The notes below the pieces were generated by a model. It ran no database searches. It was not told the origin of the DNA and saw only the letters and a program-made list of their open reading frames with translations. Shown here piece after piece: positions 49,506-60,318 of a DNA stretch of 64,000 bases (position 1 is its first letter; every line of letters begins with the position of its first letter). The DNA is from a virus (lineage: Duplodnaviria > Heunggongvirae > Uroviricota > Caudoviricetes), in IMG/VR virus record IMGVR_UViG_2778261223_000007, positions 1 through 64,000 of that record, one strand, 5' to 3'. The position numbers were made by a program, and so were the translations under genes.

Positions 49506-50081
49506 ATGTTAATGGCGAACGATAACGCATATGCAGAAGAAGATCTCATTTTGAGTGACTTCATAGGGAAGCGTGAACGCTGGACCCAAAAGCGAGAGGA
49601 ACTTTACGCCTCATTAGTTCGCAAAGGCGTCAATATCGAAACCGCACAGAGCGGCGATATGACAGTGGTAAGCGTTGGATTGCACGGTGTAAGCGTGTCA
49701 GCAATCAATCATGAGCCATACGTTGCGTTATCCGAGTCAATGGTAAGGTTAGTTAAGTTCCTGAAGTACACAGAAGCGAATAATGTAATCATTGGCAAAA
49801 AGAATATCCCTTTTTCCTCGGCTTTTTACTGGATGATGAAAGGGCTTGATGCCCGGCGGACATCATGGCCTAAAGGGAGCTATATATCGATGTTCCGTGG
49901 CAGCATTGGCAGCAAAGAAAAGCTCTTCGAATTCTTGCCGGAAGAGGCATTCGATATTGTGGAAGGGTGCGATGTGATGGTGATGCCTCGCCTGGTAATG
50001 ATGAATGGTGATTTACAGGCGCAGACAGACTGGTTTGCAACTGGTGTGGATATTATCGCGACTGACTGGGAGGCTTTCTGA
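49506..50081 (+). CDS. hypothetical protein with C-terminal DUF2829-like region
   Basis: 191 aa; ..PFSSAFYWMMKGLDARRTSWPKGSYISMF.. resembles the DUF2829 signature; weaker than ORF 57728. Confidence 0.35.
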   Translation: MLMANDNAYAEEDLILSDFIGKRERWTQKREELYASLVRKGVNIETAQSGDMTVVSVGLHGVSVSAINHEPYVALSESMVRLVKFLKYTEANNVIIGKKNIPFSSAFYWMMKGLDARRTSWPKGSYISMFRGSIGSKEKLFEFLPEEAFDIVEGCDVMVMPRLVMMNGDLQAQTDWFATGVDIIATDWEAF

Positions 50082-50473
50082 TGTACGGGACTACCAAATT
50101 AAGCACTCAACAGGCCACCAATATTGAGTGGTCTATCGCTAACTGTAAGATCGTGTCATGCAATGCCACGCGTACTGATGTGGGCCATAAAAGCACTATA
50201 ACAGGCTATCTAGTAATGACCACCAGGGGGATGAGGGTTAGATTTCGTTGGAAAGCAGAGCAAGTAACGCCATTCAGAGAGCCATCAATGCCGCTGCAGG
50301 TTGAGCAGGATTATCTATGTTTACCAGAAATAGATGGCGGAATGCTGGTGGAGTCTGATGGTAGTAAGGCTGATTTTGAAGCCAATTTGAAGCTGGCACA
50401 GGCCGTAATCAATAGTTATCGCGGACAGTGGATCGCAAAAGTGAAACATGTTGTTCGTTTGTCTCGCTGGTAG
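50081..50473 (+). CDS. hypothetical protein (130 aa)
   Basis: ATGA-coupled to upstream ORF. Confidence 0.35.
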   Translation: MYGTTKLSTQQATNIEWSIANCKIVSCNATRTDVGHKSTITGYLVMTTRGMRVRFRWKAEQVTPFREPSMPLQVEQDYLCLPEIDGGMLVESDGSKADFEANLKLAQAVINSYRGQWIAKVKHVVRLSRW

Positions 50474-55117: not shown

Positions 55118-55151
55118 ATAACTTTAAATAATTGGCATTATTTAAAGTTAG
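55118..55151 (+). promoter_or_regulatory. lox-family recombination site (rox-like): 13/14-bp inverted arms around a short spacer
   Basis: ATAACTTTAAATA-ATTGGCAT-TATTTAAAGTTAG; core TAACTTTAAATAAT-TGGC-ATTATTTAAAGTTA equals the rox site of phage D6 Dre (reverse orientation) as recalled; 150 bp upstream of the Cre-like gene. Confidence 0.8.
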
Positions 55152-55302
55152 GCTATAATCATGTGTAGATGAACAGTATTGACATCACTGAAAATACGTG
55201 CATCCAATCAAAGGCTTGTATTTTGAAAATTAACTTATAGCTACCCTGTCATTTTTATATTTTTCGCGTAGCTTCATCTGTATATAGAGGTGAAATGGTT
55301 TC

Positions 55303-56331
55303 ATGAGTGAATTAATTATCTCTGGCAGTTCCGGTGGTTTTCTGCGCAACATTGGCAAAGAGTACCAGGAAGCCGCAGAAAACTTTATGCGGTTCATGAA
55401 TGATCAGGGTGCTTATGCGCCGAATACTCTGCGCGACCTCCGGTTGGTGTTTCATTCCTGGGCGCGCTGGTGTCACGCTCGCCAGCTTGCCTGGTTTCCG
55501 ATCTCACCAGAAATGGCCCGCGAGTATTTTCTTCAGTTGCATGATGCCGATCTGGCTTCGACCACCATTGATAAGCACTACGCCATGCTTAACATGCTGC
55601 TTTCTCATTGTGGCCTTCCGCCACTTTCGGATGATAAAAGTGTTTCTCTGGCTATGCGGCGTATCCGGCGCGAAGCGGCAACGGAAAAAGGCGAACGAAC
55701 AGGCCAGGCTATACCGCTGCGATGGGACGACCTGAAACTGCTCGACGTCCTGTTGTCCAGGTCAGAACGGCTGGTGGACCTGCGCAACCGGGCTTTTCTC
55801 TTTGTTGCATACAATACGCTGATGCGTATGTCGGAAATCTCGCGTATTCGTGTAGGAGATCTGGACCAAACAGGTGACACTGTCACGCTACATATTTCAC
55901 ACACGAAGACAATAACGACCGCCGCCGGGCTTGATAAGGTGCTTTCCCGTCGCACTACTGCTGTGCTGAATGACTGGCTGGATGTTTCCGGGCTTCGTGA
56001 ACATCCTGACGCGGTGCTGTTCCCGCCGATACACCGTAGCAATAAGGCCAGGATTACGACAACGCCCCTTACTGCACCTGCAATGGAGAAAATATTCAGC
56101 GACGCCTGGGTGTTGCTGAATAAAAGGGATGCCACGCCAAACAAAGGGAGATACCGGACGTGGACCGGGCATAGTGCTCGTGTCGGGGCCGCTATCGATA
56201 TGGCTGAAAAGCAGGTGTCTATGGTGGAGATTATGCAGGAAGGAACCTGGAAGAAACCGGAAACACTTATGCGGTATCTGCGCCGTGGCGGTGTGTCTGT
56301 GGGGGCTAATAGCCGCTTGATGGATTCATAA
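55303..56331 (+). CDS. dre: Cre-family tyrosine recombinase (Dre-like)
   Basis: 342 aa; aligns along its length with P1 Cre from memory at roughly 40-45% identity (..VSLAMRRIRRE.., ..LRNRAFLFVAYNTLMRMSEISRIRV.., ..WTGHSARVGAAIDMA.., ..WKKPETLMRYLRRG with catalytic Tyr). Confidence 0.85.
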   Translation: MSELIISGSSGGFLRNIGKEYQEAAENFMRFMNDQGAYAPNTLRDLRLVFHSWARWCHARQLAWFPISPEMAREYFLQLHDADLASTTIDKHYAMLNMLLSHCGLPPLSDDKSVSLAMRRIRREAATEKGERTGQAIPLRWDDLKLLDVLLSRSERLVDLRNRAFLFVAYNTLMRMSEISRIRVGDLDQTGDTVTLHISHTKTITTAAGLDKVLSRRTTAVLNDWLDVSGLREHPDAVLFPPIHRSNKARITTTPLTAPAMEKIFSDAWVLLNKRDATPNKGRYRTWTGHSARVGAAIDMAEKQVSMVEIMQEGTWKKPETLMRYLRRGGVSVGANSRLMDS

Positions 56332-56332
56332 A

Positions 56333-56348
56333 TTAAATTTCTAACACA
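56333..56348 (+). promoter_or_regulatory. operator-like motif
   Basis: TTAAATTTCTAACACA two bp after the recombinase stop codon. Confidence 0.45.
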
Positions 56349-56392
56349 TCTTTTTAGATTGATATCTTTGCTGTAAAGTACCCTCGCCTATT

Positions 56393-56749
56393 TTGGAGGG
56401 TGCTTTGCAGAGTCAAATCACGGAATCAAGACGCTTCACGGTGGATGGTTACACCGTAACCTTCGCCGCTGGTGTTAAGAACAGTCATGCTGTCGTTGTA
56501 TTCGGCATCATGACCGGGCTTGAGGCCGTCCCTGTGTTTACCCTCGAAAAAAACTGGCGAAATCTGGAGGAAGCAGAAAGCTACGTCCGGAAAGTAACCA
56601 TCATTGCCGCCGAAAAACTCCTGGCCCACTATCAGGAAAATTATCGCACTATGGTCGAGAAGATTAATCTCGCTTTCACTCGCCCCACTACCGGCTTTAT
56701 TGCACCGGATACTAATGCAGGTCGATATCCGGCAAGGGGGCGTCGGTGA
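56393..56749 (+). CDS. hypothetical protein (118 aa; start uncertain)
   Basis: ORF only. Confidence 0.3.
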   Translation: MEGALQSQITESRRFTVDGYTVTFAAGVKNSHAVVVFGIMTGLEAVPVFTLEKNWRNLEEAESYVRKVTIIAAEKLLAHYQENYRTMVEKINLAFTRPTTGFIAPDTNAGRYPARGRR

Positions 56750-57222
56750 AAACTTATTACCCATCTCTGAATTGTTACCCGTCTTCCTATCCAGGATTGT
56801 CCGGGAAGCTGTTAGCTCTATTAGCTAAAGCACCTACGGAATGGTTTAAGCCAGTCGTTATCAATCCACACTTCCTGGATTACGGATCTGTTCGCACTCG
56901 TAACGAACTCAAAAACCTACTGGCGCATGGATTCATTCGACACCGTGCCGGTAAAGGCTATCAGTTATCGATTGCGCCAGAAGAGGCCGTGCGGCTATTC
57001 GCATATCGTGACAGCCAGACAAAAGCTCGGGTAATAGCTCAAATACTTCATAACGGCAGCACCTATGCCCGCCAGTTTGGCGGCGACACGTCGCAGTTCT
57101 TGCGGGCGGTGCGATCGCTGGAGGAGCAAGGAGTTATTGAAAGTTCCTGTCTTCCTGTTCCAACCGTTCCACATATCAAACGTCGGGTTTACACCTTCAC
57201 GCAGAGAGCTAAAAAACAATGA
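56746..57222 (+). CDS. hypothetical protein with winged-helix-like segments
   Basis: 158 aa; two wHTH-like stretches (..SVRTRNELKNLLAHGFIRHRAGKGYQLS.., ..FLRAVRSLEEQGVIE..). Confidence 0.35.
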   Translation: MKTYYPSLNCYPSSYPGLSGKLLALLAKAPTEWFKPVVINPHFLDYGSVRTRNELKNLLAHGFIRHRAGKGYQLSIAPEEAVRLFAYRDSQTKARVIAQILHNGSTYARQFGGDTSQFLRAVRSLEEQGVIESSCLPVPTVPHIKRRVYTFTQRAKKQ

Positions 57223-57713
57223 TTTACGTAAAAGTGAAACGCCTACATCCGGCAGCAAAACTTCCAGCTTATGCCACCTCCGGATCGGCGGCGATGGATT
57301 TTGAGGCTGTTGAAATAAAACCATGTGTCGATAGCAATGGTGCAATTTCCTCAAGCTGGTGGGTGTACACCGGATTGGCTATGGAGATCCCGCCCGGCTG
57401 GTGTCTGAAACTCTATCCGCGATCCGGATTGGGCTGCAAAAAACATACTCGCCTGGCTAACTGCGTAGGAATTATCGACTCCGATTATCGCGGCGAAATC
57501 ATGGCAAAACTGATTACTGATCCCGGCGGGGAAGGCGTTTGTCTCAAGCCTGGAATGGCTGTCATGCAAGGAATTTTTGAGCGTGTTGAACAAGTCTCAC
57601 TAGTCGAGGTTGAGGAACTCAACGAAACGGAACGTGGTGATGGTGGCTTTGGTAGCACATCGGAAGGCCACTTTGAAATTAAGCGTTCACCGCTTCAGTA
57701 CGAAAAGTTATAA
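57219..57713 (+). CDS. dut: dUTPase
   Basis: 164 aa; conserved dUTPase motifs AMDFEA, YPRSGLG, GIIDSDYRGEIM. Confidence 0.7.
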   Translation: MIYVKVKRLHPAAKLPAYATSGSAAMDFEAVEIKPCVDSNGAISSSWWVYTGLAMEIPPGWCLKLYPRSGLGCKKHTRLANCVGIIDSDYRGEIMAKLITDPGGEGVCLKPGMAVMQGIFERVEQVSLVEVEELNETERGDGGFGSTSEGHFEIKRSPLQYEKL

Positions 57714-57727
57714 GCAGAGAAAAGACT

Positions 57728-58168
57728 ATGAATAACATGGCAACGAAAGAGCTTTTTAAGTTCCTTCCAAAATACAAAGCTCACAAAAAAAATGGAACCA
57801 CGGTCATCATTACGGATGACAACGGCGTGATGATTAATCTTACCGGGAGCGTAACTATTTCTGCTGGTGGCATCACCACCCAGCAAGAAGAAATCGACCT
57901 TGAAGCAGCCGACTTTTCTGACGCGCTGATGTGGCTGAAGGATGGCAAGAAAGTTGCTCGACGCGGGTGGAACGGCGAAAACCAATTCTGCTGGCTGGTT
58001 CCTGAAGGACAGTACCCGGCACGAATGGAAGCCATTAAGGGATATTTCCCCGGCGACCTCGTTCCGTATGGTGCTTATTTCGCCTTAAAAAATGCACAAG
58101 GTGTAGTTGTTCCGTGGGTTCCTTCTGTAGGCGACTTACTGGCATGTGACTGGTTTGTGGTGGAGTGA
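57728..58168 (+). CDS. DUF2829-domain protein (Tad2-like fold family)
   Basis: 146 aa; ..FSDALMWLKDGKKVARRGWNGENQFCWLV.. matches the DUF2829 signature as recalled. Confidence 0.5.
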   Translation: MNNMATKELFKFLPKYKAHKKNGTTVIITDDNGVMINLTGSVTISAGGITTQQEEIDLEAADFSDALMWLKDGKKVARRGWNGENQFCWLVPEGQYPARMEAIKGYFPGDLVPYGAYFALKNAQGVVVPWVPSVGDLLACDWFVVE

Positions 58169-58174
58169 TTTAAC

Positions 58175-58951
58175 GTGGAAAATACTAAAGCAATTCAATA
58201 CCGCTTGCGTAATGGCCTGCTGGTGGCTGTTAACGCCGACATGTCACTGCCGTTTGACACGATTGAACGCACTATCATGACATATCTCGGCTTTAATGAA
58301 GAACTGAATGAAGAGCATGGCGTAGCTATATGGAGCGATGCAGAAAGCGGCGTTCATCGTTACATCACCGCCAGGGGCAAAGACTACTCTCTGGAAGAAC
58401 TGTTTACCCTTGCACAGTCTTTCGAATGTGTAGCATTAGACATGTTTAATGATCCTGCTATAGCGCAACGACTTATACGCGAGCTTGGGCTATCCGTTAC
58501 ACCAATTATCTTTAAGAATGGCAGCCTGACTGGCACATGGCGCGTAGAACGCATCTCAAACTACCTTCCATATAACCGACAGTTAAATGGAGTAATCTCC
58601 GGCGTTAATCAGCCCGTAGCGTGTGAAAATGTAAACCTGGTTGTCGCTGTTTTGGCAACCGCATGTCGTGTTATCGGTTTGGCTAAACAGGCATTTATTC
58701 ATTTCCCAAATGGTGCAGAAGGTAGCGCAGAGATTATCGCGTGTGATTTCGAATTTACCTGGATGCTACGCGAATATCTGGACCAAACAGTATTCCGTGC
58801 CGAAGAACTGGATATGTATATCACGTCAACGATTCCAGACGATGTGCGAGCAGAAGCAATCGCTACAGCCAGGGCGAAATGCCGTGCGGCGATTGCAGAA
58901 CGGGCCAAAGAAGAACAGTCCAATGATACAGCGGCAGAAGAGGTGGAATAA
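58175..58951 (+). CDS. hypothetical protein (258 aa)
   Basis: ORF followed by a strong bidirectional terminator. Confidence 0.4.
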   Translation: MENTKAIQYRLRNGLLVAVNADMSLPFDTIERTIMTYLGFNEELNEEHGVAIWSDAESGVHRYITARGKDYSLEELFTLAQSFECVALDMFNDPAIAQRLIRELGLSVTPIIFKNGSLTGTWRVERISNYLPYNRQLNGVISGVNQPVACENVNLVVAVLATACRVIGLAKQAFIHFPNGAEGSAEIIACDFEFTWMLREYLDQTVFRAEELDMYITSTIPDDVRAEAIATARAKCRAAIAERAKEEQSNDTAAEEVE

Positions 58952-58985
58952 CAAAAAGCCCGCTTGGTATGGCGGGCTTCTTTTC
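58952..58985. terminator. bidirectional intrinsic terminator
   Basis: AAAAAGCCCGCTTGGTATGGCGGGCTTCTTTTC between convergent transcription units. Confidence 0.65.
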
Positions 58986-59202
58986 AAATACTGGAAGCAC
59001 TTTGTCTGCTACCAAGCATTCTCTGTTTAAGCACAACCATTTCCTGACGGCATAACACAGCAATAGCGGTCCTGGCACCAATTTGCTTACCAACCAGGTA
59101 TTGCTTTACCTCGCGGCGACTCACGCCATCAAGAAGCATCTTTAACGCTTCACGGGACAACTTGTTGTATTTACGTGCCATTAATCTACTCCGCAGAACC
59201 AT
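58984..59202 (-). CDS. small hypothetical protein downstream of doc (possible HTH)
   Basis: 72-aa ORF overlapping the doc stop; basic, helix-rich. Confidence 0.25.
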
Positions 59203-59566
59203 ACAATCTACGTAACGTGTCGGCGACAGAAGATACAGATATCTCGCCAGTCGCAGCGCCTACAGTAAGGTCTGCCAGTTCAGGTGAATCAAATACCTGA
59301 ACCCCGTTACGGCGTAGAAATAGCAGCGCACTGTTTAGCGCGGTACGCTTATTGGCATCATTGAATATATGCCCTCTCGCTGTAGCCACCAGGTAGGTGG
59401 CGGAGACTTCGAAAAGGTCGCTGATCTCTTCGTAGGCAACTCTGGCCTGAACTCTCCCGATAATGGCCTCTGCCCTACCCGGATCTGACATTCCCGGCAG
59501 GCCACCGTAGCGGCTTATATTCGCATCATGAAGCGCAATAAGTTCTTCCGGTGATATATGCCTCAT
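59186..59566 (-). CDS. doc: Doc toxin (Fic-fold kinase)
   Basis: 126 aa, [22 protein letters not shown]...[19 protein letters not shown]...; recalled as essentially the P1 Doc sequence, including the Fic-type motif. Confidence 0.95.
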
Positions 59567-59787
59567 TATCGGTTAACCAGTTCCTTGTTGGTGGAGTCCA
59601 GGGTGTCAAACAGGGATGCAAATTCGGCATCCAGCGCCGCTTTTTTGTAGGCTTCAAAAGTAGCCTTGCTAACAATTACTGCTGGCTCACGGCCTCTGCG
59701 GGTGATTTCAACCTCTTCCCCGGCTTCAACATTGTTGAGCACTTCAGAAAGGTTGCCGCGCGCGGTACGGAAGTTAATGGATTGCAT
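59566..59787 (-). CDS. phd: Phd antitoxin
   Basis: 73 aa from [56 protein letters not shown].. (track ORF starts 2 codons earlier); stop overlaps doc start by 1 nt. Confidence 0.95.
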
Positions 59788-59895
59788 AAACACCTCGTGT
59801 GCTCGTTATGTGTACGCAATTATAGGTTTTAATGATGCTGAATACCACTTCTTGGTGCCTTAAATCCTCGAGATGCAGTCTTGCAATTGCTGGGA

Positions 59896-60318
59896 TTAAG
59901 CAGAATAAGTGGTTGGAATTCTGAGCAGTAATCCAATCTTGGCTATGTGCTCATATGGCAGCTCTCCGGTTTTACCGTCATGTATCGAGGCTATCAGATT
60001 CAATTCTTGCGCCGCTTTACGAATTTCAGTTTCTGATGGAACAAGGCGAAAACCGATGTGTAACATTTTGATATAGAAAGGTAATAGTTCGTACTTCACC
60101 CGTAACTGTGCTGCCGCATCTTTCAAATCATGGATGATTTCTTGTTTTAAGTCAGAGCGGGGATTCGATAGCTTTGCTTGGTTAGACAATAACAGATGCG
60201 ATATTTCCCCCAACTGTTCCTTGAATGAAATGTAAGACTCAACCCCCTTGATGATGAGTCGACCTAGGACAAAAACGCTTACTCCAGTGACAACAGTGAC
60301 AAAAGCAGACGAACTCAT
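59896..60318 (-). CDS. hypothetical membrane-anchored protein (140 aa)
   Basis: N-terminal TM helix (AFVTVVTGVSVFVLGRLII); AT-rich gene between phd and humD. Confidence 0.4.
   Translation of the reverse strand: MSSSAFVTVVTGVSVFVLGRLIIKGVESYISFKEQLGEISHLLLSNQAKLSNPRSDLKQEIIHDLKDAAAQLRVKYELLPFYIKMLHIGFRLVPSETEIRKAAQELNLIASIHDGKTGELPYEHIAKIGLLLRIPTTYSA

Follow-up and report, generated by a model that had tools for sequence, protein, structure and literature searches.

Tad2-family (DUF2829) proteins of the phage-plasmid D6: an internally deleted orf114 allele and a divergent two-domain relative, orf6

Proteins of the Tad2 family (Pfam PF11195, Tad2-like, formerly DUF2829) sequester immune signalling nucleotides, and they are functionally plastic. 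SPO1 Tad2 and HgmTad2 bind the Thoeris signal glycocyclic ADP-ribose (gcADPR), and HgmTad2 has a second pocket that binds cyclic dinucleotides. ModTad2, from a Myroides odoratus prophage, leaves type I Thoeris uninhibited and binds histidine-ADP-ribose (His-ADPR), the type II signal, and, in a separate pocket, cyclic UMP and cyclic CMP (cUMP/cCMP) of Pycsar. Other Tad2 homologues inhibit type IV Thoeris, some inhibit several Thoeris types, and natural stand-alone Tad2 proteins of 88-89 residues are fully active. Here we compare with these systems two genes, orf114 and orf6, that carry the signature of the family in a 64,000-nucleotide stretch of viral DNA (positions 1 to 64,000 of IMG/VR record IMGVR_UViG_2778261223_000007), which as a whole is called the window below.

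Bases 55135-60000 of the window are 99.9% identical, in reverse orientation, to Escherichia phage D6 (NC_050154.1 / MF356679.1), a P1-like phage-plasmid. Phage-plasmids of the P1/D6 type occur widely among E. coli, Shigella and Salmonella, clinically important lineages included, and which hosts they can enter and persist in depends in part on their anti-defence genes. In a preprint (bioRxiv 10.1101/2025.09.12.675607), DefenseFinder was run on 2,304 phage-plasmid contigs, and 'Tad2 AcrIIA7 (anti-Thoeris)' was reported in 93% of the D6 group and 56% of the P1 group. The Tad2 nature of orf114 is thus already known at the annotation level, from this preprint and from the RefSeq DUF2829 label, while in the literature we found no experiment on any P1/D6 Tad2-like protein. 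New here are the status of the D6 reference as a deletion allele, its putative ModTad2-like (type II) pocket signature, the series of P1-like alleles, and the recognition of orf6 as a DUF2829 clade that is rare and conserved, has two domains and carries an altered motif. The finding extends a known family and leaves current concepts unchanged.

The orf114 gene (57728..58168, + strand) encodes a protein of 146 residues (YP_009914791.1, 'DUF2829 domain-containing protein' in RefSeq). An earlier reading of the window, called the original prediction in the following, had placed a DUF2829 signature in this open reading frame (ORF) and a weaker version of it in the ORF at 49506-50081; both ORFs are indeed present there on the + strand, and the Tad2 role stated there agrees with the literature. 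The assignment of orf114 to the DUF2829/Tad2 family can be called strong, because profile, matches to solved Tad2 proteins, predicted fold and conserved pocket core all point the same way. Against PF11195 it scores 81.3 bits (E 7.7e-23; Pfam gathering cut-off 25 bits) over residues 62-145 and model positions 2-73 of 73, and the signature originally quoted, FSDALMWLKDGKKVARRGWNGENQ, is its residues 63-86. A phmmer search of the PDB sequences returned Tad2 proteins only, namely ModTad2 (9EIB/8V3E, E 2e-20), HgmTad2/AcrIIA7 (7e-11), SPO1 Tad2 (3e-9) and SptTad2 (1e-8), all of which align to residues 58-146. With a hidden Markov model of the Tad2 domain, all 750 stop-to-stop segments in the six reading frames of the window were searched; the ORFs starting at 57728 and 49506 were the only matches (E 2e-47 and 3e-4), and therefore there are exactly two copies in the window and a chance match is excluded.

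The AlphaFold2 (AF2) model of orf114, built with 64 homologues, has predicted local distance difference test (pLDDT) values of 89-96 for residues 61-146 and of 51-63 for residues 1-60. All 24 Foldseek matches to the PDB with E<1e-3 are Tad2 structures, the best one being 9eib, ModTad2 with His-ADPR (E 4e-10; template modelling score on the target 0.78-0.89). The predicted domain has the elements of the Tad2 fold, that is, an N-terminal helix, an antiparallel beta-sheet and short loop helices. From the model, the Foldseek matches and the alignments to the pocket residues of the literature, the Tad2 domain can be delimited to residues 58-146 (57899..58165, + strand), preceded by 57 N-terminal residues (57728..57898, + strand).

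The pocket was mapped on the basis of the published contacts of SPO1 Tad2, in which W25, N26, W73 and D79 contact the ligand, T78, I63 and T65 contact the adenine, and D67, H71 and S76 act via waters. In the alignments, W25, N26, W73, S76 and D79 correspond to W81, N82, W130, S133 and D136 of orf114, and the pocket core is thus intact; W81, W130, S133 and D136 are invariant in the 64 homologues, a pattern of purifying conservation. The position of I63 is taken conservatively by L120. The remaining contacts of the gcADPR subclass are changed: T78 to G135, T65 to N122, D67 to Q124 and H71 to V128. SPO1 Tad2 (gp34.65; 8SME/8SMF) and HgmTad2 (AcrIIA7; 8KBI-8KBM) accordingly share family, fold and core with orf114 at 37-39% identity but not these four contacts, and the long insertion with which HgmTad2 binds cyclic dinucleotides is absent from D6 orf114.

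The best match in both sequence and structure is ModTad2 (8V3E, apo; 9EIB, with His-ADPR), at 45-46% identity. The two proteins are alike in domain length, in the length of the insertion after beta2, in the GWNG loop and in the W-x-P-S-V-x-D pocket strand, and both are without the adenine-contacting Thr of the gcADPR binders. They differ in that ModTad2 is a stand-alone protein of 88 residues whereas orf114 adds an N-terminal remnant of 57 residues (about 135 residues in the full-length alleles), and in the pocket lining, where N122, Q124, V128 and G135 of the D6 protein stand against T, D, A and S of ModTad2. The binding of His-ADPR and cUMP/cCMP by ModTad2 is experimental, while that by orf114 is predicted. 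That the nearest characterised relative binds His-ADPR and cUMP, and not gcADPR, had been missed in the original prediction.

On this basis, orf114 is most likely a working Tad2-family sponge. Its C-terminal domain of 89 residues would, by analogy with Tad2 proteins of solved structure, form a homotetramer, whose inter-subunit pockets, lined by W81 and N82 of the GWNG loop together with W130, S133 and D136, would bind an immune signal derived from ADP-ribose. The signal would in this way be kept from its effector, and Thoeris-type abortive infection would not be triggered as D6, presumably expressing orf114 at that stage, infects or establishes itself. His-ADPR, the signal of type II Thoeris, would be the likeliest ligand. 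A second pocket, for small cyclic nucleotides such as cUMP and cCMP of Pycsar, may also be present, since ModTad2 has both activities and D6 orf114 keeps an insertion of ModTad2 length after strand beta2, the region that forms the second pocket of ModTad2. An in-frame deletion has removed 79 residues of an N-terminal accessory domain and left the sponge domain untouched. The other gene, orf6, is a second DUF2829 paralogue, of ancient divergence, joined to an N-terminal domain like those that bind double-stranded RNA (dsRBD-like).

We consider this explanation as a whole, that is, a working sponge with a deleted N-terminal domain and a diverged second paralogue, to be probable. Several points weigh against it, those that concern orf6 being given with that protein below. 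Among the Tad2 homologues tested, most act against type I Thoeris, and 19 of the 84 sponge homologues tested (Acb2, Tad1 and Tad2 pooled) inhibited none of seven systems. The poorly modelled N-terminal remnant could interfere with assembly of the tetramer. The assignment of the ligand is suggestive, as it draws on few characterised homologues, none above 46% identity, and in essence on a single position that varies. As to expression, the promoter and terminator calls for the gene string of orf114, given further below, are consensus matches only, and in the consensus scan promoter-like sites were not commoner in the window than in shuffled sequence.

We now turn our attention to orf6 (49506..50081, + strand; 191 residues; YP_009914683.1, 'hypothetical protein'). 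Its score against PF11195 is 39.1 bits (E 1.1e-9, residues 103-190), which is above the cut-off and bears out its description as a weaker copy. In hhalign, the orf6 and orf114 families align over 90 columns, that is, over the whole domain, with a probability of 91.2% and E 1e-6, and all 10 of the remote relatives that were scanned, out of 29 representatives, match PF11195. It is important to note that other data are less favourable. A single-sequence search of the PDB gave no relatives of orf6; the profile of its 16-sequence family retrieved Tad2 chains only, and these weakly (E 0.1-0.5); and in the AF2 model, which was built on a shallow alignment of 16 sequences, residues 93-191 have pLDDT values of 30-64 and are unreliable. 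The case for orf6 as a genuine but divergent DUF2829 protein is therefore graded as moderate: the Pfam score is above the cut-off and the hhalign probability is high, but the fold model failed and a motif residue is changed.

The divergent Tad2-like domain, as delimited by hhalign, the profile search of the PDB and the alignments, covers residues 98-191 (49797..50078, + strand). Both pocket tryptophans and the aspartate are conserved in it (W121, W176 and D182), while the GWNG loop is replaced by S-W121-P122-K123-G (SWPKG), which is fixed across the family. The equivalent of N26 is P122 and that of S76 is T179; the pocket core is thus altered and the phosphate-binding Asn is lost, which again speaks against a second sponge. 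Across 16 homologues, down to 41% identity, the C-terminal domain has 26 invariant residues, among them the two pocket tryptophans and the aspartate, and the C-terminal DW motif is also invariant. The family is rare: a search of 5.8 billion sequences gave 20 clusters, and one of 1.8 billion gave 29 representatives at E<=1e-3, of which about ten have the full two-domain architecture. In D6, according to its annotation, orf6 is placed between tciA/tciB and orf5-lpa-pacA-pacB-c1, and this slot, immediately upstream of lpa-pacA-pacB-c1, is also the one held by homologues with 42-56% identity. Because such diverged homologues hold the same slot, orf6 has been retained for a long time under selection. 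Neither this fixed position in diverged relatives nor the second domain described next was part of the original prediction.

This second domain, at the N-terminus, covers residues about 7-92 (49524..49781, + strand) and is predicted with confidence as alpha-alpha-beta-beta-beta-alpha, which contains the alpha-beta-beta-beta-alpha arrangement of a dsRBD-like fold. It has no Pfam match even at E<=10.

If orf6 is a sponge, it would probably bind a small phosphorylated ligand with a different chemistry, given the change of Asn to Pro and the neighbouring invariant Lys, and its divergent clade would, if active, be a candidate for an unassigned ligand. Another explanation is that orf6 is not a signal sponge at all, its DUF2829-like domain having been recruited elsewhere, for example to protein or nucleic acid binding together with the dsRBD-like domain. 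The family-wide loss of the phosphate-binding Asn would fit with such a role, as would the N-terminal fold, which is typical of RNA or ribosome binders, the rarity of the family, and a C-terminal model that does not confirm the Tad2 fold. The invariance of both pocket tryptophans, the aspartate and the DW motif is, however, more in line with a retained pocket; the invariant Lys beside the Pro could take over phosphate binding, and the known sponge Acb4 is itself dsRBD-like. We consider the non-sponge role somewhat unlikely, although it keeps a substantial share of plausibility.

The resemblance to Acb4 calls for a closer comparison. SPO1 Acb4 (gp1.3) belongs to Pfam PF13876 (Phage_gp49_66). 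An alignment by hhalign of the orf6 N-terminal domain with SPO1 Acb4 was not significant (probability 0.4%, E 0.14), and the one with an 11-member profile of the Acb4 family was out of register (probability 0.3%, E 0.22). The beta3-alpha4 loop of the Acb4 family (consensus SACxxPENFNxEIG), which forms the cyclic GMP-AMP pocket and carries the ligand residues V56, Y57, F62, N63 and I66, is conserved in the 11 members, and in the only in-register alignment orf6 has a gap at this loop. Membership of the orf6 N-terminal domain in Acb4/PF13876 is thus unsupported: there is no profile match, the loop is missing, and the generic fold class alone is shared.

A search by tblastn with Acb4 led to Pmp13_0045 of Pasteurella phage Pmp13 (L015:728-1285), a 185-residue protein annotated as hypothetical, in which a PF13876 match (101 bits) is followed by one to PF11195 (89.5 bits). 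It is a natural fusion of an Acb4-family protein with Tad2, that is, of two immune-signal sponge families, and a dual-sponge architecture therefore exists in nature. Pmp13_0045 is similar to orf6 in size and in domain order, with a small alpha/beta domain at the N-terminus and DUF2829 at the C-terminus. The N-terminal domain of the Pmp13 protein is, however, a clear PF13876 member, whereas that of orf6 has no detectable sequence relationship to it and no ligand loop, and the two Tad2 domains are only about 23% identical. Two further loci are similar in kind. In Stenotrophomonas phage Pokken (gp42-gp44, L016:355-1410), a Tad2 gene and an Acb4-family gene lie two genes apart. PF21825 (crAss001_48-related), a small helical module, is the C-terminal fusion partner of an Acb4-family domain in Pokken gp44 and of a Tad2 domain in P0038 and proteins related to it, and may be an accessory module shared by sponge proteins. 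A search for Acb4-related loci in viral contigs gave SPO1 itself only. One can speculate that the orf6 family is an unrecognised two-module sponge, with a dsRBD-like, possibly remotely Acb4-like, domain joined to an SWPKG Tad2 domain, directed at one or two immune signals outside the known specificities of Tad1, Tad2, Acb2 and Acb4, in which case D6 would deploy two distinct sponges of the Tad2 type against separate host systems; we regard this as improbable.

We return to the ligand of orf114, for which the Tad2 constructs in the supplement of the His-ADPR paper (bioRxiv 10.1101/2024.01.03.573942) were translated for comparison. At the position of SPO1 T78, both gcADPR binders (SPO1 and HgmTad2) have Thr, while the three known type II inhibitors have Ser, Ala or Gly. 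D6 orf114 has Gly there and has the pocket strand 'LKNAQG..P.WVPS.GDL' in common with one of the type II inhibitors; overall it is 45% identical to ModTad2 and 37% to SPO1 Tad2. The varying pocket residues thus seem closer to those of type II Thoeris inhibitors than to those of gcADPR binders, which in so small a sample is suggestive only. His-ADPR, with or without the Pycsar nucleotides, is the specificity that we tentatively favour.

The main competitor of this assignment is that orf114 sequesters the signal of type I Thoeris (1''-3' gcADPR, or 3' cyclic ADP-ribose, 3'cADPR), like SPO1 Tad2. Besides the prevalence of type I inhibition among the homologues tested so far, it can be argued that orf114 fully conserves the W/N/W/S/D core, to which SPO1 Tad2 owes its main van der Waals and phosphate contacts, and that some Tad2 proteins block several Thoeris types at once. 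We nevertheless find a type I specificity unlikely, as the four substitutions T78 to G135, T65 to N122, D67 to Q124 and H71 to V128 follow the pattern of type II inhibitors, and ModTad2, the nearest relative with a solved structure, has no effect on type I. Should the D6 proteins be active, they would be sponges, native to E. coli, of signals of the ADP-ribose type, probably His-ADPR, which is hard to obtain, and such sponges have served as useful baits in the discovery of new immune signals. In the plasmid table of the same supplement, the TmoTad2 construct is AT-rich while the CcaTad2 construct is GC-richer and enterobacterial-looking, the reverse of what is expected for Tatumella and Clostridium; the two labels may have been swapped.

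The original prediction had also overlooked that orf114 is an internally deleted allele. In comparison with the 225-residue allele of plasmid pRHB23-C14_2, the D6 gene has a clean in-frame deletion of 237 bp (79 codons) within A-runs, with its junction between codons 20 and 21, in an A-run at about 57785-57793. D6 is thus without residues 21-99 of the 225-residue protein, and its 57 N-terminal residues are the first 20 of the lost N-terminal domain followed by a beta-rich linker. The lost segment matches no Pfam family. Close homologues on plasmid contigs of ~90 kb have mostly 216-233 residues. DUF2829 proteins of this length from P1/D6-like phage-plasmids, such as P0001, SJ46 J46_0048 and vB_EcoM-Ro157c2YLVW gp12, are alleles of the orf114 gene and lie beside an isaA-like gene; the long alleles of the D6 type are located downstream of dut and have a Tad2 domain identical to that of orf114. 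Among the matches listed, at least five records of D6-like plasmids, from E. coli and Salmonella and from different hosts and sources, share the deletion, while the other 20 D6-like plasmids have an extra 225-237 bp at the deletion point (nearly always 237 bp). Alleles with N-terminal parts of only about 57-61% identity have Tad2 domains that are 98-100% identical. Residues 57-126 of P0001, a region mostly deleted in orf114, gave a marginal match (E 0.006) to the oligonucleotide/oligosaccharide-binding (OB) fold region of Dec, the decoration protein of phage L (PDB 6e3c), with the shared motif GGYL...G.L.Y.S..FE..Y.

The deletion raises the question of whether orf114 is a decaying remnant, inactivated by the loss of 79 codons and persisting as an ORF by chance. 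We judge this to be distinctly improbable, because the deletion is in frame, the whole Tad2 domain is intact and identical to that of the full-length alleles, the same allele occurs in at least five plasmids from different hosts and sources, and a stand-alone Tad2 domain is the active form in other phages. By analogy with the latter, since stand-alone proteins of 88-89 residues are active, the deletion probably leaves the sponge functional. Decay would nonetheless be in keeping with the absence from D6 of 237 bp that most D6-like plasmids have, and with the other variants found there: in P0027 (241 residues, 15 member sequences) the dUTPase has become joined in frame to the Tad2 domain through a deletion, and P0076 (117 residues) is without the first half of the Tad2 domain. 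It would also be in keeping with phage RCS47 (FO818745.1 15495-15950), in which a P1-type Tad2 homologue is interrupted ('part 1') beside an inverted repeat and isaA, and with the fact that no P1 record was seen among the tblastn matches listed. The IS1-associated region of P1 may have lost the Tad2 gene. The dut-Tad2 locus is prone to rearrangement and deletion. In an unrelated phage, Bacillus phage Shanette (NC_028983.1 93206-93475), a Tad2-like match overlaps or abuts an annotated dUTPase gene, an arrangement that resembles dut-Tad2 of D6 and that could be a coincidence.

The alleles of P1-like plasmids (P0009, P0014, P0033, P0036, P0054 and P0057) fall into at least three types, which differ exactly in two known pocket regions: GWNG versus GWKG or EWKG, WVPSVGD versus WLPSV[AD]D, and a short, medium or long insertion after beta2. 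Compared with orf114, the P1-type alleles have GWKG or EWKG, WLPSV[AD]D and the short insertion. Such differences suggest a diversification of specificity. If active, the series, consisting of the long form, the D6 deletion, the dUTPase fusion and the three pocket variants, would be a ready set for studying the role of the N-terminal part and the evolution of specificity.

Finally, the database labels that would make these proteins anti-CRISPRs (AcrIIA7-like) or type I toxin-antitoxin toxins ('MW1434 family') can be dismissed as very improbable: HgmTad2 was indeed first described as AcrIIA7, and NCBI calls the orf6 homologue P0128 (56% identical) an 'MW1434 family type I TA system toxin', but Li et al. 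failed to reproduce any anti-Cas9 activity with HgmTad2 or with its homologues, MW1434 is listed merely as a predicted type I toxin in the literature found, and neither D6 protein matches any NCBIfam model. The toxin label would call for a small, hydrophobic, membrane-active peptide, whereas the two proteins have 146 and 191 residues, are acidic (isoelectric point about 5) and soluble-looking, and have no transmembrane-grade stretch (maximum 19-residue Kyte-Doolittle averages of 1.41 for orf114 and 1.20 for orf6). For a 191-residue acidic soluble protein, the MW1434 name given to P0128 looks inappropriate.

As to the gene setting, the D6 annotation gives the string dre (a Cre-like recombinase), orf117, orf116, dut, orf114 and an isaA-like gene, with pdcA, doc and phd after it on the opposite strand. 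Within this string of six genes, neighbours overlap or are tightly packed. Dre is found at 55303-56331 by annotation and profile scan, in agreement with the 'post-recombinase' position originally described for orf114. The dUTPase gene dut (57219..57713, + strand; Pfam PF00692, E 6.5e-15) is the immediate upstream neighbour of orf114 in the same string, which is context only, and it and the small ORFs of unassigned function next to the two genes, all noted before, are real. The proposal built on them, an anti-defence island, found no support, unlike the family membership of both proteins. In scans of the neighbours against Pfam, NCBIfam, PHROGs and PADLOC, extended to the PDB sequences for the isaA-like protein, only dUTPase, TerB and Lpa were recognised; orf117, orf116, the dUTPase, the isaA-like protein and orf5 match no known defence or anti-defence family. 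Because of this, and because the two genes are 7.6 kb apart with the core genes lpa, pacA, pacB and c1, the rox site and dre between them, the island was dropped. The evidence supports only two separate accessory slots with one DUF2829 gene each.

A candidate promoter of the string dre-orf117-orf116-dut-orf114-isaA-like is a strong sigma-70-like match, TTGGCA-16-TATAAT (11/12), at 55132..55159 (+ strand), and a candidate end of the string is a terminator-like hairpin with a T-run at 58962..58977 (+ strand), just past the isaA-like gene; both are pattern matches. The sigma-70 match sits at the boundary of the rox site, the equivalent of lox, just upstream of dre. The P1 C1 operator consensus ATTGCTCTAATAAATTT had zero matches across the whole window with up to 3 mismatches allowed. 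At the other slot, orf6 is followed by orf5 (50081..50473, + strand; 130 residues), which belongs to a PHROG of unknown function. This gene is found beside the orf6 homologue P0128 and is absent beside P0136 in other P1-like plasmids, and it is thus not an obligate partner of orf6. In D6, the stop codon of orf6 and the start codon of orf5 overlap (TGATG, window 50079-50083), which suggests translational coupling, and the ATG of orf6 itself is preceded by a Shine-Dalgarno sequence, AAGGAG, that is, by a good ribosome-binding site.

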